From Candidatus Thorarchaeota archaeon (GTDB lineage Archaea > Asgardarchaeota > Thorarchaeia > Thorarchaeales > Thorarchaeaceae), in assembly GCA_011364985.1 (NCBI GenBank), contig RDOC01000004.1, positions 128,001 to 192,000 on the forward strand: a DNA stretch of 64,000 nt, written 5' to 3'. Each line of letters starts with the position of its first letter. Within the stretch, counting starts at the first letter, position 1. The position numbers were made by a program, and so were the translations under genes. Shown in pieces: positions 2,550-13,687 of this stretch. The notes under the pieces are model-generated. The model searched no databases, was not told the origin of the DNA, and saw only the letters and a program-made list of their open reading frames with translations.

Positions 2550-2667
2550 TGGTGCGGAGGGCGAGATTTGAACTCGCGATTCGGACGCCGAGTGGCAATC
2601 GCTCAGCGAACTCCTACGAGATAGGGATCTGAACCCTACGCCTTTGACCAGGCTTGGCAACCTCCGC
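2550..2667 (-). tRNA. tRNA-Leu(CAG) with a 30-nt insertion (possible non-canonical intron) at the variable arm/T-stem junction; CCA encoded
   Basis: GCGGAGG-TT-GCCAAGCCTGGTCAAAGGC-G-TAGGG-TTCAGAT-CCCTA-TCTCGTAGGAGTTC-[30 nt]-GCGAG-TTCAAAT-CTCGC-CCTCCGC-ACCA. Confidence 0.9.
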
Positions 2668-3990: not shown

Positions 3991-4431
3991 GTGATTCGTG
4001 TCATGGTTTTGAAGAGATTCGGTGTCTCAGTACCAGAAGATATATTGAAGCGCTTTGACGAGCTTGTTGCGAAGAAGGGGTACATGGGTAGGTCTGAGGC
4101 ACTTCGAGATGCCATGCGCCTATTCCTATCACAACATGAGCTTGAAGAAAGTGATGTGGGGAATGTCGCAAGTCTTAGCATTGTTTACAAACACAACCCG
4201 CGCATTATGGCGGGTCTCATCAAAATGCAACACGATTCTATTGCAGATGTCATTTCCACATTACACGTCCATCTAACACCGTCGTATTGTCTTGAAGTCA
4301 CAACGCTCAAAGGATCGCGCGAAAGCATTCAGAGAATGGCTGACCAGATTGAAGGGCTATCTGGTGTTGAATATACTCGCCTCTTCACCTTTCCCTTGCC
4401 TGACGAGTCTACCGATCCCCATGAACATTGA
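3991..4431 (+). CDS. nikR: nickel-responsive regulator NikR
   Basis: RFGVSV...GYMGRSEALRDA ribbon-helix-helix; HVHL-x4-CLEV nickel ligands. Confidence 0.92.
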   Translation: MIRVMVLKRFGVSVPEDILKRFDELVAKKGYMGRSEALRDAMRLFLSQHELEESDVGNVASLSIVYKHNPRIMAGLIKMQHDSIADVISTLHVHLTPSYCLEVTTLKGSRESIQRMADQIEGLSGVEYTRLFTFPLPDESTDPHEH

Positions 4432-4510: not shown

Positions 4511-4756
4511 ATGTCCATTGATGATGAAGGCATCGGTCCTCCAAGTCTCTATACAAAACGGACCATTCTTTGGATGCTGATGACCTTTGTCCTTACTCCT
4601 TTCACTGCAGGACTGCTTGCCCAAATGGAATATATTCCCTTCACAGTCGAGATGGCGATGCTGAATGGCCTTATTGTTGCCTTTGTCTACGTCGGATTCA
4701 GAGTATGGAAAGTTAAATCTGCTACTAATCAAATCAGAACAGCAACAAGTGTTTGA
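4511..4756 (+). CDS. small 2-TM membrane protein
   Basis: 81-aa ORF with two hydrophobic helices. Confidence 0.6.
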   Translation: MSIDDEGIGPPSLYTKRTILWMLMTFVLTPFTAGLLAQMEYIPFTVEMAMLNGLIVAFVYVGFRVWKVKSATNQIRTATSV

Positions 4757-4854
4757 ACACTTCACAGGAAAGGGGATTCTGGATGATGGAACAGAACTGG
4801 CTGTAAATCGGTTTCTTGGCTCTGCAGAGGATGTTTACAATAGGTGGTGAGAAA

Positions 4855-4876
4855 TGGGGCCCGAAGGGGGAATCGA
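4855..4876 (-). pseudogene. 3' fragment of the disrupted original tRNA-His (T-loop to CCA)
   Basis: minus strand TCGATT-CCCCC-TTCGGGC-C-CCA; His discriminator C; pairs with the GCCCGAG acceptor strand of the 5' fragment at 13538. Confidence 0.8.
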
Positions 4877-4960
4877 GAATCAGACTCCCATTAGCTTGAG
4901 TTAGATTCTCCTTGTAAACAAACTTATCATCATATTTACATGTACTAAAATGATGATAAG
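4875..4960. repeat. two adjacent inverted repeats/hairpins at the boundary of the secondary insert
   Basis: GAGAATC(4875-4881)/GATTCTC(4904-4910) and perfect 11-bp CTTATCATCAT(4923-4933)/ATGATGATAAG(4950-4960). Confidence 0.75.
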
Positions 4961-4963
4961 AAA

Positions 4964-5194
4964 ATGGAGGCGGAATTGAAGGACATCTTGGAAAACGGAA
5001 AGGATTGGGAAAAAGCAAAAACGACTACCCCAGGACTATGGATTTGCAAAATGCCCGGAAAAGGCGACAACCCTCCGAGCCTTGTCATCATCATTAATCC
5101 AATTGAGAATATTAACCCGCCTACATCAAAGAAATTAGATAGAAGTAGATTCTTTGAAGTAACAATGTCAGTATATCGTTTCAACGATTCTTAA
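4964..5194 (+). CDS. hypothetical protein, probably a truncated member of a small archaeal 'GKDWE' family
   Basis: LKDILENGKDWEKAKTTTPGLWICKMPG...PSLVIIINP resembles a conserved archaeal hypothetical family (from memory); the C-terminus looks degenerate. Confidence 0.5.
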   Translation: MEAELKDILENGKDWEKAKTTTPGLWICKMPGKGDNPPSLVIIINPIENINPPTSKKLDRSRFFEVTMSVYRFNDS

Positions 5195-5304
5195 TGAGTA
5201 GTTTCGGCAATTTCGATACCACAGAGAAAAGAACTGACAGGTGGATAAGATGGATAAGCTAATAAGCCGCTGGCGAAAATCAGCTTCTTCGTTTGAGAAG
5301 CAAT

Positions 5305-5379
5305 GGCCCGAGTGGTGTACTGGCAGCATAAGAGATTGTGGCTCTCTTGAAACGGGTTCGATTCCCGTCTCGGGCCCCA
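5305..5379 (+). tRNA. tRNA-His(GUG), intact, G-1 and CCA encoded (replacement copy)
   Basis: G-GCCCGAG-TG-GTGT-ACTGGCA-GCAT-A-AGAGA-TTGTGGC-TCTCT-TGAA-ACGGG-TTCGATT-CCCGT-CTCGGGC-C-CCA. Confidence 0.96.
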
Positions 5380-5449
5380 TATTCCATCTCATCACGAGGC
5401 GTAGCAGTTTTTTGAGATAATGTCTTTTGTTATCCAGATGACATTAATA

Positions 5450-5540
5450 ATCCAACGATAGCAAAGGAGCCACAGCCGTTCATTTTCAATTGGACCTGAT
5501 TTTGCATCAGGCTGTCCCTCCAGGAACGGCACTGGATACT
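5450..5540 (-). ncRNA. candidate TnpB omegaRNA (3' scaffold plus guide)
   Basis: Overlaps the tnpB 3' end; GCCGTTC(5530-5524) pairs with GAACGGC(5481-5475) around hairpin CCTGAT-GCAAA-ATCAGG; ends in TGTGG followed by flank-derived CTCCTTTG...; 5' boundary unknown. Confidence 0.6.
5462..5469 (-). pseudogene. middle fragment of the disrupted tRNA-His (3' side of the anticodon stem)
   Basis: CTCCTTTG directly follows the element's right-end TGTGG; TCCTT pairs perfectly with AAGGA of the 5' fragment. Confidence 0.7.
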
Positions 5541-7672
5541 CTGTCTTGAACATGAATGATGTTTCGGGCTGCATTCACATCAGCATGGAAATGTTCGTCA
5601 CACAATGAACAATAGAAGTATTCTCCACCCCTTCTCTCGACGGTGGACTGCTCATCTGCAACACGAACACCACGCTCACCACATACATGGCAGGTCTGAG
5701 AAGTGAACCTTGGGTTCACTGTCCACACACTGTATGGTGAGTGTCCAAGTGACACTCGCATATATCTCACTGTGTCTATAATCTTCCCCCATAGATTCGA
5801 ACTTAGGTTGTACGACAGGTCCTTTGACCCACCATGAGCCTGAAAGCTCCTGAGATCCTCGAAGAAAATCTTCTTGACTCGATGCTCCTCACAGAACCAG
5901 ACGGTCTTTGATGCAATGATTCGGGCGATCTCACGGTCAAGACGACGGATCTTTCTCCATAGGGCTTTGATATGCCTGTCCTTCTTGAGGATGTGTTTTG
6001 GATATGACAGTCCTGATCGTTTGCGTCCCCAATTGTTCCTCTTCCTGTCTGTAACTGATTGCAGATCATAGGCCTGCTTTCTCAAGAACTCTCTCTTCTT
6101 CACAAGCTGGTCCACTCTCAACAGGAGTTCCCTGTATTCCTTCCCCTTCATCACCGAGAGCACCACGGGAACTCTAATTCCTCTGTCAACACCAGCCCTT
6201 GCTTCATACTCTCTTTCTCCAAGAACCTGCTGTATCAAGAAATCATCAGGAGCCAAGAAAGGAATCTGCAATGAAATTCTATTCCCCCTCAGAAGAAGTC
6301 GGGGAGGAGCGCTCCTCCTTGAACTCCTGAGTTCTGTGATCTTACTCTGAAGTTTGGTAGTTTCTTCTCCATCCTTACCCTTCTTCTGTTTCACTTTGTA
6401 GAGTCTGTGTGTCAGATGCTGTATCTCAATGGTGTTCATGAGCTGTTGATGCATATCTTCGAACATCGCCGCTCGAAACCTCAACCGCTGGGCACGATGA
6501 CAATCTCCATTGTCCTCTGCGTTCTGAGCCTTGGCTCCGTCTTTGATCGTGGCACTGGACATCCAATCCAGAAATCGAAAAGCCAAGGTCTTTCCCTTGT
6601 ACGGAGAACTCTCATGATGAGTGCCATTAATTCCTGGAGGGAGCTTGATGTGAAAGAGAATCTCATTCTTTCTCTCTGGGTCGACACTAAACCAGTACCC
6701 CTGTCCAGGCGAGTTCTCTGTACTTGCACTGAAATCCAGACTATGACTCCGAAGGCATGGAACAGAGAATAGGTATCCATTCTCTTTCCAAACCTCAAGT
6801 TTCCTTGCAGTAAGAAAGAGGATGCGTTCTTTCTCAGAAACAGAATCCTGAAGCAAGGATGCTACATACTTGCGTTGTCTTCCCCTCCATTGTATCTTGA
6901 CTCCTTGTTCCTCAAGAATGTGGTCATCCAGAGCTAGCCTGAGCTGTCTTAGGACTCCAAGGGAGTGATGAAAACCAGCCCCATCGTTCTTTGCTGAATC
7001 GCATGCATCTCTCACTCTGCGGATAAGATTGGAGGGAATATGCTTTCTTCTCAGAAGTTGAAGTGCATCAGCAGCAGACTCGCTTAGCACCTTGATCGCT
7101 GCATTGAAGAGCTGCCTTCGTGTCCAGTCTGCCAGAAGTGTACGTCCAGCGTGCTCAAGGGCATTGCGATAGAGTCGCTCAAAGCATAATGCCTGAATTT
7201 CCTCGTTCTGCTGGTAATTCAAATCCCTCATCTTCCTGAGAAGGGTATAAGCTCGCCCCCTGTATTCGGATAGTTGCTGACCAAGTGACTGCACACGGTC
7301 ATTATCCTTGTATATTCTTGCAAGCATGAGATTCACTACTTGGACATAGTTGTCAAAGAGAGAACCAAGAAGCTGCAAGTCAACCTCGTCCGCTTTCTTC
7401 CCAGAGCGCTTGGGTATCAGCGTAAATATCTCTTGATTTGGTTTTCTTGATGAAGAAAAGAAGGGGTCAGGTCTTCGATTTCTCCTCCTCTTTGCAATAA
7501 CTCTGTCAACAGAGTTCAGAACAAACGACTCGACAAGATAGGATTTCGATGGGGGTATTATAAAGTTGCCATCAATTTTCTCTTGCTTCTTCTGAGTTTG
7601 AGTGACAGAACCAGATTTCTGCTTCCAGTGATGGCGCTGGATTTCTTGCTTCATCATATGTTCCTGAGTCAT
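5507..7672 (-). CDS. tnpB: large TnpB/Cas12f-like RNA-guided RuvC endonuclease (721 aa)
   Basis: RuvC-I AGVDRG, RuvC-II FFEDL, NPRFTSQTCHVC...CSLC zinc finger, RuvC-III HADVNAARNI. Confidence 0.9.
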   Translation of the reverse strand: MTQEHMMKQEIQRHHWKQKSGSVTQTQKKQEKIDGNFIIPPSKSYLVESFVLNSVDRVIAKRRRNRRPDPFFSSSRKPNQEIFTLIPKRSGKKADEVDLQLLGSLFDNYVQVVNLMLARIYKDNDRVQSLGQQLSEYRGRAYTLLRKMRDLNYQQNEEIQALCFERLYRNALEHAGRTLLADWTRRQLFNAAIKVLSESAADALQLLRRKHIPSNLIRRVRDACDSAKNDGAGFHHSLGVLRQLRLALDDHILEEQGVKIQWRGRQRKYVASLLQDSVSEKERILFLTARKLEVWKENGYLFSVPCLRSHSLDFSASTENSPGQGYWFSVDPERKNEILFHIKLPPGINGTHHESSPYKGKTLAFRFLDWMSSATIKDGAKAQNAEDNGDCHRAQRLRFRAAMFEDMHQQLMNTIEIQHLTHRLYKVKQKKGKDGEETTKLQSKITELRSSRRSAPPRLLLRGNRISLQIPFLAPDDFLIQQVLGEREYEARAGVDRGIRVPVVLSVMKGKEYRELLLRVDQLVKKREFLRKQAYDLQSVTDRKRNNWGRKRSGLSYPKHILKKDRHIKALWRKIRRLDREIARIIASKTVWFCEEHRVKKIFFEDLRSFQAHGGSKDLSYNLSSNLWGKIIDTVRYMRVSLGHSPYSVWTVNPRFTSQTCHVCGERGVRVADEQSTVERRGGEYFYCSLCDEHFHADVNAARNIIHVQDRVSSAVPGGTA

Positions 7673-7679
7673 TGTTCTT

Positions 7680-7845
7680 CATCAGCAATATTAACTCAGA
7701 GTATTATAAAGTTATCAAGATTACTAATTTATTGTCTCTTATTTTTTCTAAAAAAGGGATATAAAGGCTTATAATTGAATTATATGTTATTTTGTTTACT
7801 AACGAAATTTAATTACATGTATGTCGTAGTGTTTTCTAAGGTATC
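7680..7845. promoter_or_regulatory. very AT-rich divergent promoter region between tnpB and the giant nuclease gene
   Basis: AT-rich tract with several TATA-like boxes (TTATAAA, GATATAAA, TTTATAA, TTATAT). Confidence 0.55.
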
Positions 7846-7848
7846 CCC

Positions 7849-10800
7849 ATGAGAGGTAGAAAGGGAAGAATAAACAGCCCAAGTGGCATCCTGAGTACTG
7901 CAATCTACATGGGTCTGGTCGCCCTGTGTCGAATCTCTAGAAACAGAGCAAGTAAGAAGACTAGAAAGTTCCACCGAAGTATCGAGAAGATGTGGGCATC
8001 AGCCCGAGAAGACTACAAGGTCCAAAAGGGCCTAAGACAGAATGACTTCTCGCCTATCAAAAATGCGGAACCAAACATGCGAGGACAATTTCTAAAATTT
8101 GTCTGGACAAGCACAAAACGATATGGAAACAAGGAGTTCAAGCGCGTCTATAGCTGGTTGGAAGGAACGGTTGGACCTCTCAATGCACTTCTGAACTATG
8201 CTGGAGCTTGCCTTCGAGACCTTGCTATGGTTCTATATCCTTTTCCACAGCCTCAGAGGTTCCAAATTCGTGAATGGCCGAACGGGACTAGAAGGATTCT
8301 CACTGAATCAGAAGCTAGTGAGATTACAAAGGATGGTACAGTAAAAGTCCACTGGCGGAGTGGGTATGAGAGGAATGGCAAGAATCCTCGAGTGTTACTC
8401 TCGCATCCAACCTTGCCTAGTCTGGATTTTGTAGACATGATACGGACACATTGCGTCGAGCTCTGTCGACAATGTTTTATCTATCACGTCCCTAGGACTG
8501 AGGCACATCGATACATACGCCTCCTTATTCATCGACTCAAGCCCTTCCTTGACTGGATCTACACAAATGGACAAGAGGGCCGTTCTGGGTTCAATCCTCA
8601 TGCTGACCATGAACTTAGGAAGATGGTCCTTGAGATAAGGTCACTCTATAGAAAAAGTGCTAAGACTAGTAGACGTATCTCGGGGCAGCATAACGAGAAA
8701 CCCATTGACCTCTCTCTTGAGAAAATCCGCCAGAAGGGCATCAAACAATTGGAAGAATCCACTGATGCAAAGGAAAGAAAGCTGTTACAGAAATTCCTAA
8801 ACTATATCGATACTGCATCAGGAGTCGTAGCACGACGTGATATCGAGAAACTAATAGGTCAGATATTGGCTCTTAGTTCACGAGAGGGTACTACTTGGCA
8901 CAGGGTCCTGCTCTCAGACCTCCACCATCCGAAGTCCCTTCGTCAGGTCATTTTTTCTGGGGATCAGCTGCTTACTTCATTCTCATCAATCCTAATAGTT
9001 GCGGAACTCCCTGTTGCAGGACATTCCGGACGAGTGGACCTGACCATTTTCATCAGAAGAGAGATTGCAGGAGAGGTCTTGTGGACTCCGGTGATGATCC
9101 TTGAGATTAAGACAAAGGCAACCTTTGATTTCAACCTCTACGGATTTGAACTCAAGCGAAAAAGAAAGCATGCTGTCACCCCTGCTTTCTACGCATGGAA
9201 ACGCACTATGACTGGGAATGAGTGGCAGAGCATTGTCAATGCAAGTCCCGACCCAGATGCCCTTAATCAACTTCGAGCCTATGAACAGGAGCTTATTGCA
9301 GAGTATAGACAGTTAGCCGCTCATGACCCAGCTCCGCCCTCCTCGCTTTGGAAAGGAGTCATTGTCTTGGATGCTGAAGCGAGTCCGGAGGACATATTTC
9401 CAGCCGTCCAGTTTCTTCTTGAAGATCTGAAGACTGGGCTCCTACAGCAGCTGATTGATCGAGATTCCTTCATTGCTGTTACACCAAAATCCCTAGCTTT
9501 AGAAGGGGACGATCCCAGGGTTTCTCTACTAGTTTCTCCAGCCAGGGGACCTACTGGATTACTCGGCGAGATGGAGCCTCCCACAAGTCTACCCATTGAC
9601 GATCCCTTTGCTGACCGAGAGAGCGACGACCGACTTCTAACACTCTATGTTTCCATTCCTTCTCCAACCTCCTCGGGAGTGACTGCAGCAAGACTCTCTC
9701 GAAACTGGCATCTCCTTCATCATATTCAGGAGTGTATTGAAACAATCTCCTCCATAGAAGATGTGGTGTGGCTAGACCTTATGGGGGATTACAAGAGCGA
9801 TGAGCTTGTCAAGAAACGATTCGGCTTGCATTCCTTGAGACAGGAGAAGATGATATCCAAGAAGTCCTTTCGGGAACTCACCTCAATCCTTCAATCCATC
9901 AGGTTTCTCGACCTGAGTCCATTCATGAACGGGATTCTTACCGAAGGCGCACAGGCATTTAGCAGCCTACTAAACCATATTGCAGCTACAATCCCAGCTG
10001 AGAATGGAGAACAGATCATCATCCTTGATGGATGGACAGACCTGCAAGATATGATTCCAAGACATCAACAGCACCTACTTCGTATCCTTGAGCGAAAACT
10101 GCTTCATGCGCTCCCTCAATCAAATGTTAACATCATCTGGATTGATGACGGTGTGCCCCATACTAAGATGAACCCAGACTACCAGCGTCAGTGCATCAGT
10201 CCTCTTAGGTATGACTCCCTCCGCAAGACTCATGTTGATGAGTTCATCTACAATATGCCAATACCCTCTCCTAGGTTCTGGTGGACAAATCCACAACATG
10301 ATGATATTCGAATCATTGTGCAAGACACCCCGACCAGAGAAAACCCCTGGAAGACGGCAATCTACGTTCCACAACTTTCGGGACTTGCAGAGAAGTTTAG
10401 AGGTCTTGCCAAGCGGGACAGAGTCATTGCTCCTAAGGAAATAGCACAGGATTTGGAAGGGAAGAAACCTATGTATGGACGAGATGTGACCCTGTGTCGC
10501 ATTCATCCATCTTCAGGTATTCTCTCAGAGGATGAACTCTCTGACCTTCTAGAAGATGCGCTCACTCTTGTGCCCAGTACCCTGAGAGAGAGGATGCCCC
10601 GACTAGAAGAAGAGTGTGAAGAAATCCAGATTTCTGAAGATGCTATCTGGCAATCTGTTATCCAGACGACTAGCTCTGCAAGCGGTTCTACGATGGAAGA
10701 AAGGATGAGAATTGATGTAACAAGACCACCCCCACGACCAGGGGGAACTGACCGATACATCGATGTTCTCATCAATGCTAAAAGAGAGCGGATTACAAGA

Positions 10801-13173
10801 TCTTGGTCCTATGACCAGACCCCCAAGCAATTTCCTGATGATGCAGATGAGTCTTATCTGTGTACATTCCCTCCAGAGTTGACGATCTCTGATGCAGTAG
10901 AGATCGACTCCATTGAAACCCGTGAACGAGAGCTTGGACGGCTCAAATCAGCAACCAGATACCTGAAGCAACAGACCTTCCTCTCACAGAAACTAAGGAA
11001 AATGTGCAGGAGGATTGAGAGGCATTGCAATCAGCAATTTGCTCTCATTAAAGACAACCCCTCACTGAAGACCAGTAACTTCTTCTTTAAAGCACTCAAA
11101 CAGGTCGAAACAATTATCCTAGAGGACACGCTAGGAGCAACTATCTGGGAAACACTCCGTTCATCTCGACAAGAACTACTTGATGTTCTGAACTCAGACA
11201 ACAGACAATTCTTAGAGGAGGTCATGAAGGAAACACCTGATGCTCTCCTGCTCTATGGCAATAATCTTGTCCTAGCAATTGTTTCTGTTCTCAAGGACAG
11301 CAACTTGTCTTTAGCAAAGCCTCTCTGGGAGTCTGTTGCTAGGTGGACATTATATCAGATAGGAATGAACAGTGACAATGATATCACAAAGACAGTCTAT
11401 AGCTTTCGAGCAATTCTCTCCAACCTGAGAGCGCGCATCAATACTCTTTCGCATCTCAATCTCCCTGAGATGATTCTGGAACAAGAGCAGGTTGGTGCGA
11501 TCATTTGGATGGAGTCTGAGGCCAGGTATGATGCACTTCTTCTAATATCTCATGATAATACTGGCTTTCTAATTGGCATTATTGAGGGACTAAACAATAG
11601 ATGGATTCCAGCAAAATGGCACTCCTGTAAGACAACTCCCCAGCAGTTAAAACACCATGTGCAGAACGCTCTCACATCCACAGATAGGACACCTGTTATC
11701 ACGACCACGGTTAGAGATTTGAGTGTCCTCCTGATACCTGCGTTGACCGAGGATGATGAACTCGTCTGGAGCTGCTTCTCTCTGAAGCATGGTAGACCCA
11801 GCGGACGACGAAACAGTATTCCATGGATAAAGCTAGAACCTGCTGAATCTCTGGCAGCGCCCAGCCACGTACCTGAGATCCCAGACGAAATTGACGAAAC
11901 TCTCCGGAAGATAATTCGGGTCAAGCACAGCATCACTCCTGTAAAGCTCCTCGTTGGTATAGATGAGGAGCTTGAGGTCTACGAAGTTCAGTTAACGGGC
12001 GAAGGCATTGAAGAACGACGTAAGTTCAGACGAACCAGAGAAGCGGTTCGATTTCTCAGAACTCCAATCAGAGAGGGAGTGGGGTATCGGTGGCAGGGAC
12101 AGACTCTCACTTGGGACCATCGCAAAGATATCGATTATGGCGATTCACTCTCTTTTCTCAGACCTCTTATTCATCGGAGCAAGTTCTACCCCGATATCTA
12201 TCATTATCCAAAGACATGCAAGGACCTCCTTACCGCAAGCAAAGGACATGAGATAATCATGGTCATCAGTCAAGAGGGACCGACATACCGGGTCAAGTTT
12301 CAGGATCTCCCAGACCAATCTGCTCTGAGAGAACTGGAGATAGCGGAACTGGACATCCATGCACTGGGCCTACTTGCAGAGTGCAAGGAACTCTTTGACC
12401 TCGGAAGCAGGACTTGGCACCCATTAGTGCTAGATGTCAACGCTATCATGGACCTCTGGTTCCCCAAGCTTCATGAATACCCCCGGCTAATTGAGGCGAT
12501 TCAGGCCGCTGATGTTAACGAGTTCAACTGGTCAAGAGAAACATGGTTCATAGAGATTAGGCTTTGGAGAAATGAACTGAGATGGTGCATCATGTCGAAG
12601 ACAACAGGACTGCCTTGGATGAACAGGGAATTCACATATATCCTTACTCTTGGAAGAGAGCCTGATAAGGAGTTGGAGGCTTTCAAGGAGGTGGTCACGG
12701 CCATTGTTCAGCCAGAGCATCTCTGCAATCTGGATGACGAGCTTGAAACGTACAAGGTGACACTCAAGGAGAGGTATAGTGAATACCTTCGGACTGTCAG
12801 TGTGGAAGACGCGGATGAGAGAAAAGCTGAAGATGAGCTGGAGAAAGCTGCTGCTATAGGCGCTCCATGGGAGAGAATAGCGTTCAGGTATAGCGGAATG
12901 AAACTCAGGAGAATAAAAAGAAACACCGTGGTTGTTGTTTCCTTGGTGTCCGGCGAAGAAGAAGCAGAGGTGTACGTGGTGAGGGATGTCCAAAGGTATG
13001 TGAATGAATCTCGGTCAGCAGGTGCAATCCACTCAGAACCTGTTGATGATGAGGTGAAGGAGAGTCTTGCAGACTATGAGTTTGAGAAGGGCGAGCTTGA
13101 AAGAATCAAGGCGGCTGTCAGGAAAGTGTTGGAGGAGGAAGGAGTCAGGTTTTCTAATGAACAGGCCTTTTAG
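7849..13173 (+). CDS. giant (1774 aa) protein with a PD-(D/E)XK nuclease domain and a degenerate P-loop-like domain
   Basis: VAELPV...GRVDLTIF...ILEIKTK...NQLRAY...KGVIV nuclease motifs; SPTSSGVT, VVWLDL and IIILDGW resemble RecA-like Walker remnants. Confidence 0.75.
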   Translation: MRGRKGRINSPSGILSTAIYMGLVALCRISRNRASKKTRKFHRSIEKMWASAREDYKVQKGLRQNDFSPIKNAEPNMRGQFLKFVWTSTKRYGNKEFKRVYSWLEGTVGPLNALLNYAGACLRDLAMVLYPFPQPQRFQIREWPNGTRRILTESEASEITKDGTVKVHWRSGYERNGKNPRVLLSHPTLPSLDFVDMIRTHCVELCRQCFIYHVPRTEAHRYIRLLIHRLKPFLDWIYTNGQEGRSGFNPHADHELRKMVLEIRSLYRKSAKTSRRISGQHNEKPIDLSLEKIRQKGIKQLEESTDAKERKLLQKFLNYIDTASGVVARRDIEKLIGQILALSSREGTTWHRVLLSDLHHPKSLRQVIFSGDQLLTSFSSILIVAELPVAGHSGRVDLTIFIRREIAGEVLWTPVMILEIKTKATFDFNLYGFELKRKRKHAVTPAFYAWKRTMTGNEWQSIVNASPDPDALNQLRAYEQELIAEYRQLAAHDPAPPSSLWKGVIVLDAEASPEDIFPAVQFLLEDLKTGLLQQLIDRDSFIAVTPKSLALEGDDPRVSLLVSPARGPTGLLGEMEPPTSLPIDDPFADRESDDRLLTLYVSIPSPTSSGVTAARLSRNWHLLHHIQECIETISSIEDVVWLDLMGDYKSDELVKKRFGLHSLRQEKMISKKSFRELTSILQSIRFLDLSPFMNGILTEGAQAFSSLLNHIAATIPAENGEQIIILDGWTDLQDMIPRHQQHLLRILERKLLHALPQSNVNIIWIDDGVPHTKMNPDYQRQCISPLRYDSLRKTHVDEFIYNMPIPSPRFWWTNPQHDDIRIIVQDTPTRENPWKTAIYVPQLSGLAEKFRGLAKRDRVIAPKEIAQDLEGKKPMYGRDVTLCRIHPSSGILSEDELSDLLEDALTLVPSTLRERMPRLEEECEEIQISEDAIWQSVIQTTSSASGSTMEERMRIDVTRPPPRPGGTDRYIDVLINAKRERITRSWSYDQTPKQFPDDADESYLCTFPPELTISDAVEIDSIETRERELGRLKSATRYLKQQTFLSQKLRKMCRRIERHCNQQFALIKDNPSLKTSNFFFKALKQVETIILEDTLGATIWETLRSSRQELLDVLNSDNRQFLEEVMKETPDALLLYGNNLVLAIVSVLKDSNLSLAKPLWESVARWTLYQIGMNSDNDITKTVYSFRAILSNLRARINTLSHLNLPEMILEQEQVGAIIWMESEARYDALLLISHDNTGFLIGIIEGLNNRWIPAKWHSCKTTPQQLKHHVQNALTSTDRTPVITTTVRDLSVLLIPALTEDDELVWSCFSLKHGRPSGRRNSIPWIKLEPAESLAAPSHVPEIPDEIDETLRKIIRVKHSITPVKLLVGIDEELEVYEVQLTGEGIEERRKFRRTREAVRFLRTPIREGVGYRWQGQTLTWDHRKDIDYGDSLSFLRPLIHRSKFYPDIYHYPKTCKDLLTASKGHEIIMVISQEGPTYRVKFQDLPDQSALRELEIAELDIHALGLLAECKELFDLGSRTWHPLVLDVNAIMDLWFPKLHEYPRLIEAIQAADVNEFNWSRETWFIEIRLWRNELRWCIMSKTTGLPWMNREFTYILTLGREPDKELEAFKEVVTAIVQPEHLCNLDDELETYKVTLKERYSEYLRTVSVEDADERKAEDELEKAAAIGAPWERIAFRYSGMKLRRIKRNTVVVVSLVSGEEEAEVYVVRDVQRYVNESRSAGAIHSEPVDDEVKESLADYEFEKGELERIKAAVRKVLEEEGVRFSNEQAF

Positions 13174-13330
13174 ACTAATGAGCACACAACTCGTAGACCC
13201 TTCATGAGAAGAAGGCGATGAGAGATATCATGTCAGAAACCAGCTCCTTCTGTGGACTCTGCTGTTCTGGTATATAGAGAATCTCAACACCCACTCCATA
13301 GTCCTTGAGGATCCCTAGAAGAATGCTGGT
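13160..13330 (-). pseudogene. tnpA: IS607 TnpA serine recombinase C-terminal remnant
   Basis: Manual translation ILLGILKDYGVGVEILYIPEQQSPQKELVSDMISLIAFFS*RVYELCAH*SKR matches the IS607 pattern YGVEIEV...SPEEELVEDLISIITSFSARLYGxRSHK; stops at 13202-13204 and 13175-13177. Confidence 0.8.
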
Positions 13331-13502
13331 GACCTTGACATCCTACTCGGTGTTTAGGACTGACCTAGTCTTTAAAGCAGTCATCTTACCCTTTGTCAAG
13401 AAAAAAAGCAGTGTTTTTTTCTCAAGGATTTTCAGTGGGAAGCTAATATTGAACATACGGAAACACGAGCGAAGAACGAGGTGAGATACATGCAGAGATT
13501 AG

Positions 13503-13539
13503 CCACAATCCTTTATGTTACCATTACACCACTCGGGCC
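13503..13539 (-). pseudogene. 5' half of the disrupted original tRNA-His(GUG)
   Basis: G-GCCCGAG-TG-GTGT-AATGGTA-ACAT-A-AAGGA-TTGTGG; upstream context (CTAATAAG...GCTTCTT...CAATGGCCCGAG) is homologous to that of the intact copy. Confidence 0.88.
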
Positions 13540-13687
13540 ATTGTTTACTAAGAAGCCAGCGATGACCAGCTCGTTTGTTTTTTCTTATTAGGTTATCCGT
13601 TTAGCAACTCCACAAGCATCCCAAACAAAAGCATGGCATGATTCAAAAACATCTTCCATCAATCGGAAGCGAGGAGATTGTAATAGG

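Follow-up and report, generated by a model that had tools for sequence, protein, structure and literature searches.

Makarova et al. are said to have introduced the name aCas1 in 2020. Loci in which aCas1 is associated with TnpB were assigned by Altae-Tran et al. (2023; PMC10691335) to the groups Cas1H-Asgard-1 and Cas1H-Asgard-2, and the accessible part of that paper proposes aCas1 as the transposase. Such loci are so far a computational prediction, and we found no experimental study of them in the literature searched. Further relatives are the IS607 elements with TnpB, such as CboIStron (bioRxiv 10.1101/2023.11.20.567912), for which a pseudoknotted omegaRNA and a G-rich target-adjacent motif (TAM) are known. 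Here we analyse an aCas1-TnpB island in a stretch of 64,000 nucleotides from a Candidatus Thorarchaeota archaeon (assembly GCA_011364985.1, contig RDOC01000004.1, positions 128,001 to 192,000 of the forward strand). We refer to this whole stretch as the window and number it from its first letter; L, G and C numbers denote loci, genomes and contigs.

As in the accessible description of the published loci (PMC10691335), an Asgard host carries a diverged Cas1 beside TnpB, and the family contains two TnpB groups. The island belongs to these Asgard aCas1-TnpB loci, and the initial annotation of this DNA, which was aware of no described system with this architecture, was mistaken on that point. With only a little more confidence than doubt, we read the island as a selfish, tRNA-homing, home-and-rescue member of the Thorarchaeota aCas1-TnpB family. 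This reading builds on the ancestry, borders, target loss, guide match and spare tRNA of the island, and on selection on both genes in relatives, all of which we observe. The window makes the question directly testable: both the occupied and the empty form of the allele are available with exact borders, and with them a guide, a candidate TAM and a tRNA predicted to be resistant.

Results

An island in place of 14 bp of a tRNA-His gene

The island interrupts a native tRNA-His gene, the two remainders of which flank it on the minus strand. Its principal features are as follows.

4877..13500: the island of 8,624 bp, which takes the place of 14 bp of tRNA-His (basis: a metagenome contig joining 4876 to 13501)
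4855..4876, minus strand: what is left of the native tRNA-His 3' end (T-loop and acceptor stem), immediately beyond the left border
13501..13598, minus strand: promoter-like motif (13584-13598) and leader of the native tRNA-His, with its 5' half (13539-13501), which breaks off past the anticodon loop
5252..5379, plus strand: promoter-like motif, leader and intact tRNA-His(GTG), the tRNA at 5306-5379; putative rescue copy
5455..5474, minus strand: predicted omegaRNA guide, beginning with TGTGG (5474-5470)
5475..5540, minus strand: 3' part of the omegaRNA scaffold and IS607-type right end (GG at 5477-5476)
5507..7672, minus strand: TnpB, 721 residues, T720 clade, with RuvC D496/E605/D698 and a four-cysteine zinc finger intact
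7673..7848: AT-rich divergent spacer between the TnpB and aCas1 genes, 176 bp, 25% GC
7849..13173, plus strand: aCas1 fusion, 1774 residues, with Cas1 (residues 4-254), a PD-(D/E)XK-like motif and a RecA-like fold (residues 593-900)
13166..13324, minus strand: C-terminal relic of tnpA (serine recombinase), 53 codons
13377..13391, minus strand: IS607-type left-end motif, degenerate (GGG at 13391-13389)

Synteny with intact loci in G059, G063, G065 and G067 identifies the half tRNA at 13501-13539 as the native tRNA-His. The segment at 4855-4876 shares its strand and is identical to the 3' end of intact tRNA-His alleles in the genus. One contig of the probable source metagenome joins 4876 to 13501 through 14 other letters and represents the empty allele. 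Since the site rebuilt in this way is a 74-nt tRNA-His, we place the island at 4877-13500. Sequencing depth is 13 for the empty-allele contig and 21 for the occupied allele, with 28-30 in the flanks. The ends of the island carry no evident terminal repeat, direct or inverted.

The spare tRNA-His within the island is inverted relative to the native gene and has an altered anticodon stem. It is the sole intact tRNA-His in this assembly, which is 74% complete. Over 40 nt its leader is 87.5% identical to that of an inverted copy in G056, to which it is slightly closer than to any native leader. This second tRNA-His, the native 3' end and the Cas1 domain described below had all been overlooked in the initial annotation.

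TnpB, its predicted omegaRNA and a guide matching tRNA-His

The two intact open reading frames (ORFs) first reported, of 721 and 1774 codons and reading head-to-head out of an AT-rich spacer, are confirmed. The smaller product, which had been proposed to be a TnpB, is a TnpB/Cas12f-like protein: Pfam assigns it to PF07282, Foldseek returns Cas12f, and the RuvC triad and the zinc finger are invariant in 57 homologues. Four short remnants matching the TnpB C-terminus alone, on contigs C15, C22 and C2 of the same genome, are probably deletion derivatives.

A scaffold hairpin at 5520-5535 is predicted to pair through its loop with 5475-5480 as a pseudoknot. In about 50 loci this loop covaries with the right-end hexamer (GCCGTT/AACGGY, GTCGTT/AACGAY, GCCATT/AATGGC), which supports the pseudoknot and thereby places the guide start at 5474. 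Over its first 14 nt the predicted guide agrees with the anticodon arm of the empty tRNA-His allele in 13 positions, the sole mismatch being one that would form a U-G wobble, and with the resident island copy in 11. The 4-mer upstream of the target is AGAT in the resident copy and GGAT in the empty allele, as inferred from the metagenome contig and the G059 allele; target sites in the family have GGG(T/C) upstream, and the resident copy fits this likely TAM less well. Relative to the guide, the 14 replaced bases are target positions +8 to +21. ISDra2 TnpB makes a staggered cut 15-21 bp from its TAM (PMC8612924), and the far edge of the replaced bases (+21) agrees with this distance.

A tRNA match of at least 12/14 follows the right end in 8 of the 12 T720 ends with decayed repeats and in none of the 35 with intact repeats, compared with 8/282 for shuffles. 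Several guides fit alleles of other genomes better than the resident allele.

The large protein is a Cas1-family fusion

The 1774-residue protein gave nothing significant in Pfam and nothing in PDB sequence searches. We therefore rely here on a structure model of residues 1-1190, with a predicted local distance difference test score (pLDDT) of 86. Residues 4-254 adopt the Cas1 catalytic fold, with VIA Z scores of 13.2 (8flj_A), 12.9 (4n06_B), 12.3 and, for the casposase 6opm_A, 10.8; the match at Z 13.2 has a root-mean-square deviation of 4.0 over 177 residues and covers the catalytic helical domain only. This fold surfaced only in the wide VIA search, and Foldseek searches of the 1190-residue model against PDB, BFVD and Atlas returned RecA-type folds only. 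H186, D193, D196 and R199 are invariant in 118 sequences and E74 or E96 is conserved; these residues are equated with the Cas1 active site by motif and not by residue-level alignment.

The RecA-like fold at residues 593-900 has a degenerate Walker A motif, without the lysine in most members. The initial annotation had called this protein a giant PD-(D/E)XK nuclease, and that description survives in part. The motif is conserved (E386 in 117/118 sequences; D397, E/D419 and K421 in 118/118), and the motif and secondary structure of the model give a topology that fits the alpha-beta-beta-beta core. However, an alignment of residues 360-520 found no Pfam profile or PDB sequence match, and the absence of PD-(D/E)XK from the fold lists is uninformative because the domain was not folded alone. 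According to the model, the label of nuclease alone is too narrow, the large protein being first and foremost a fusion built on a Cas1-family integrase. Residues 1200-1774 have no Pfam or Atlas match. A complex prediction with TnpB residues 44-711 and aCas1 residues 8-335 scored 0.00, which counts neither way.

An IS607-type ancestor

The core of the island descends from an IS607-type three-gene unit comprising tnpA, aCas1 and tnpB. The tnpA fragment, previously described as stop-riddled, is a genuine relic that aligns at 70% identity with codons 146-198 of an intact paralogue elsewhere in this genome; its aligned part has two stops, but the damage is mainly the loss of the first 145 codons. 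Full-length tnpA, encoding Resolvase and MerR domains, is present in ten T720 loci, one of them in the same genome. Transposase decay is therefore a property of this copy and not of the family.

Comparison of the intact-tnpA loci defines a left end reading GGG-T-N5/6-ACAGCT-like followed by repeats, and a right end in which repeats precede AAT(C/G)AACGG. The left end of the window copy lies about 110 bp inside the junction first proposed, and its right-end TnpA-binding-like repeat has decayed to 10/17, compared with 16-17/17 in most mobile-looking copies. The earlier reading of the junctions was correct in placing the end of the tRNA-His 5' half within the anticodon loop (13501) and in finding TGTGG at either side. 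TGTGG at 13502 and 5470 was rejected as the IS607 ends, however, the conserved end motifs being at 13377-13391 and 5477-5476 instead.

Excising the units of about 8 kb at GG reopens host ORFs at L015, L143 and L159, and two of the three rebuilt ORFs align to homologues across the joint. These are IS607-style insertions in protein genes, with neither duplication nor loss. The mapping of insertion sites recommended by the initial annotation thus yields two outcomes, with the island at tRNA-His and a 14-bp loss, and the tested intact-tnpA relatives in protein genes. L159, in the window's own genome (contig C21, about 46.7-54.9 kb), is a complete unit of 8,121 bp with tnpA, a 1700-residue aCas1 and a T720 gene, sits at GG in a protein gene without duplication, and is the best candidate for IS607-type mobility. 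At the left ends of the IS607-type T720 units L015, L020, L067, L088, L102, L139, L143 and L159, a stretch of 5-6 hypervariable bases follows the terminal GGT and does not match the right flank.

A widespread family with exchangeable TnpB partners

Of 87 genomes in the class, 51 have matches to the large gene, often more than one, with up to about 13 per genome. They are found in 29/43 genomes within the family and in 1/157 sampled outside it, and the homologues of both proteins are named Thorarchaeota. We fetched the loci of the 100 best large-gene matches, which gave 94 informative loci including the window. A divergent TnpB is present in 87 of these, 24 from the window's clade (T720) and 63 from a clade of 570-residue TnpBs (T570) in which the RuvC-II glutamate appears relocated; six of the others are tandem and one has no TnpB seen upstream. 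No tnpA match was found in the 63 T570 loci. Conversely, T720 genes without aCas1 occur at L001, L002, L004 and L008.

In a FastTree phylogeny of 91 aCas1 sequences, the TnpB partner type changes at least ten times across well-supported branches, and two of the three nearest relatives of the window aCas1 pair with T570. The ratio of nonsynonymous to synonymous substitution rates (dN/dS) in ten close pairs, including pairs without tnpA, is 0.14-0.33 for aCas1 and 0.10-0.23 for TnpB (0.10-0.33 overall). The original inference that the two genes are linked, under selection and more than a simple insertion sequence is thus borne out. The expected tree congruence with this TnpB clade is not, and we reject co-divergence with one clade given the repeated partner changes. 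Homologues occurring mostly without this TnpB clade had been named as the mark of a chance passenger. Taken literally, that is the distribution we find, with T570 accounting for 63 of the 87 partners; nonetheless, the divergent TnpB at 87/94 loci and purifying selection on both genes lead us to reject a chance passenger. The swaps between clades therefore argue against a dedicated two-protein effector without arguing for a passenger.

A third layout, seen at L119, L120, L125, L127, L128 and L130, places aCas1, a 330-residue Rad51/RadA-like gene and, where seen, T720 on one strand. L130 has tnpA upstream and forms a 9.4-kb unit, and the aCas1 proteins of this layout form one clade.

Related insertions at other tRNA and rRNA genes

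The tRNA-His genes of G056 and G062 are broken at nearly the same base as that of the window. G056 carries a related inverted spare tRNA-His, yet its core is T570 and its aCas1 is only 26% identical. At eight tRNA-Lys loci an intact tRNA copy in inverted orientation comes after a tRNA-like guide; several of these loci have displaced 3' ends, and one has a native 5' part that stops 5 nt into the target. Left breaks lie 5-7 nt into the target in four genomes. G056 and G073 have guides antisense to the tRNA. T570 ends bear multiple spacers to a neighbouring 16S rRNA or tRNA, in both orientations.

Further observations concern individual T570 loci. L207 (G021, about 755-1076) has a T570 end with two sense spacers that span the anticodon and match other tRNA-His alleles in the anticodon arm; next to it is a tRNA-His with an anticodon-loop intron, which would break the target. 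Downstream of T570 at L126, L129, L133, L134, L135 and L156 are short arrays with an AGGTCGG-like repeat and spacers of 12-27 nt, which correspond, in both orientations, to sequence in the 3' part of 16S rRNA; the 16S gene itself adjoins at least three of the elements. The arrays look like spacer capture or piled junctions. At L093, L096, L141, L152 and L161 (the last in the window's own genome, contig C16), T570 elements lie at tRNA-Gly: the intact gene is on the TnpB side, and a diverged 3' half begins no more than about 20 bp from the stop codon of aCas1. L160, also in this genome (contig C15, about 184.5-189.3 kb), has T570 and a truncated aCas1 of about 590 residues between tRNA-Lys and tRNA-Asp, with a guide antisense to the tRNA-Asp 5' end. 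The T570 element L082 (G053, contig C17) lies between a 23S gene and a displaced 137-nt 23S rRNA 3' piece on its right flank.

Other features of the island and its surroundings

The island also includes two minor segments and has no further large ORF besides the TnpB and aCas1 genes.

4964..5194, plus strand: 76-residue ORF without a Pfam match, which might be cargo or not a gene at all
13392..13500: segment of about 110 bp that separates the island border from the IS607 left end, with no match elsewhere in its own genome or in the fetched loci

Outside the island, 4704-4847 encodes the C-terminal piece of a gene found downstream of tRNA-His in relatives, here seemingly truncated or rearranged beside a NikR-like gene (3991-4431). 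A candidate intron-containing tRNA-Leu(CAG) at 2550-2667 (minus strand) appears only when ARAGORN is run with introns allowed at a lowered threshold.

Discussion

We are able to propose a general cycle for the island. TnpB and its omegaRNA would cut unoccupied tRNA-His alleles. The cell would then either use the island as a template to repair the break or have the island joined into it with the help of the aCas1 fusion. The less cleavable tRNA-His of the island would keep the cell alive, and the same cycle would make loss of the island costly. In copies without TnpA, aCas1 is the likely mobility enzyme. Because aCas1 seems to work with either TnpB clade, the link between the two probably runs through DNA ends or the break, and not through a dedicated protein partner.

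Several observations count against this cut-and-rescue account. The empty-allele contig is short (86 nt) and was recovered at 90% likeness, the allele may come from a close relative instead of the same strain, and the two sequencing runs behind it are probably one data set. None of the metagenome contigs listed covers 4907-7655, so that support for the left junction (4876/4877) comes from the assembly and from G056. At 11/14 the resident copy continues to match the guide, and its resistance is a prediction. The left break (+5 to +7) is nearer the TAM than known TnpB cuts. The set of T720 ends is non-independent, with about three target sites, and in 3 of its 8 high matches the best library match is tRNA-Thr and not the neighbouring tRNA. 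Likewise, the tRNA-Lys loci share ancestry. For the window copy dS exceeds 2, and dN/dS is therefore drawn from relatives only.

In addition, the guide continues the window's own tRNA 5' half exactly for 14 nt, restoring a perfect anticodon stem, and 7 nt are repeated at the break, so the guide could be a passive flank, as it simply is in the IS607-type copies. These observations fit a two-step history, the chief rival to our reading, which we regard as possible though not likely and in which an inverted tRNA-His cassette first entered the native gene and took over its function, and the aCas1-TnpB core then entered the dead anticodon loop with a 7-bp duplication. Casposases, which prefer tRNA genes and make duplications, offer a precedent (PMC9939771). 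However, the tRNA-Lys guides match alleles found in other genomes and depart from the broken allele beside them, and neither the antisense guides of G056 and G073 nor the two sense spacers spanning the anticodon in G021 can be flanks. No intermediate allele was seen among the contigs of the probable source metagenome. A different departure from our account is true RNA-guided transposition, in which, as in CRISPR-associated transposons (CASTs), the TnpB guide marks the target and the aCas1 fusion is recruited and integrates; its RecA-like domain would act as an adaptor, and its PD-(D/E)XK domain would trim ends. Most copies lack any other recombinase and yet occupy many tRNA and rRNA sites, and the left breaks 5-7 nt into the target and the multi-spacer T570 ends point the same way. 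Nonetheless, aCas1 changes at least ten times between two very different TnpB clades, the TnpB RuvC triad is intact whereas the Cas12k of CASTs is inactive, and the site is a deletion with variable right breaks and no clean duplication. We consider this rival quite unlikely. That a TnpB guide directs where a single-chain aCas1 fusion integrates an 8-kb cargo, making it a programmable RNA-guided integrase, strikes us as an unlikely prospect. Doubtful, too, is its wider form, in which single-copy tRNA and rRNA genes are taken over and a guide-resistant replacement is supplied, with Cas1 perhaps capturing new guides at the multi-spacer T570 ends.

If aCas1 were mere IS607 cargo, TnpA acting in trans would do all the moving. 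The intact-tnpA units that insert at GG without duplication and the T720 genes that lack aCas1 would agree with this, but it is very improbable given the absence of tnpA matches from the 63 T570 loci, island borders that lie outside the IS607 ends, and a Cas1 active site that is invariant and under purifying selection. Defence, with TnpB triggering a nuclease/NTPase effector against foreign DNA, was among the roles envisaged by the initial annotation. It could draw on the nuclease-like motif beside an NTPase-like fold and on weak Atlas feature matches to Mrr/STAND proteins (0.81, a lead only). However, the fold is RecA-like and in most members lacks the Walker A lysine, the N-terminus is Cas1, the assignable guides match host tRNA and rRNA, and the distribution is patchy, multi-copy and insertional. 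We find defence scarcely credible, and a STAND/Avs-type system is rejected on the RecA-like fold and the Cas1 N-terminus; the homing module envisaged alongside it is close to the reading that we favour.

Returning to that home-and-rescue reading, the family appears in two states: one is IS607-mobile and lands in protein genes at GG, and the other is TnpA-less, with a guide to a host tRNA and a spare copy of it. Should aCas1 integrate under guide control, this would be a new route of RNA-guided insertion, with a bearing on how the ancestors of Cas1 and Cas12 met.

Comparison with known systems

Among described systems, the accessible part of PMC10691335 has aCas1 replacing the serine recombinase, whereas in the T720 clade both coexist with IS607 ends. 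The GTTCACTCA motif given there is the conserved end of the T570 clade and is absent downstream of tnpB in the window's T720 locus. As far as its main text goes, that paper has no tRNA targets, recoded spare tRNA, empty allele or partner swapping. We did not find described an aCas1 with a complete-looking IS607 unit, tRNA-aimed guides on IS607-end decay, an inverted spare tRNA, an empty allele with a 14-bp loss, or frequent partner swaps; any of these may be present in Makarova et al. 2020 or the PNAS supplements, which lay outside the comparison.

With IS607 elements such as CboIStron, the family shares the serine recombinase with an N-terminal helix-turn-helix, GG crossover without duplication, a G-rich TAM, a right-end pseudoknotted omegaRNA and the logic of homing. 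It differs in units of about 8 kb that hold a 5-kb antisense aCas1 gene and a 721-residue TnpB, and in the window tnpA is a relic, the island extends past both insertion-sequence ends and the target loses 14 bp. Casposons (PMC9939771) resemble the island in bringing a Cas1-family integrase to tRNA genes on a mobile element. However, the island has a TnpB partner, and its aCas1 matches the Cas1 catalytic helical domain only and is fused to about 1500 further residues. Casposon membership is rejected, as PolB, evident terminal inverted repeats and the 14-15-bp duplication are not seen in the island, which shows a target deletion.

Two further systems are similar in logic only. CASTs with tRNA homing spacers direct a guide to a conserved host gene, and synthetic home-and-rescue drives, in the accessible part of PMC7968924, use an altered copy to rescue the gene that is cut. 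The island, by comparison, has neither Tn7 genes nor a CRISPR array, its TnpB is predicted to be active, and it is natural and archaeal. If the proposed cut-and-rescue cycle is true, it would be a natural RNA-guided home-and-rescue element in archaea.

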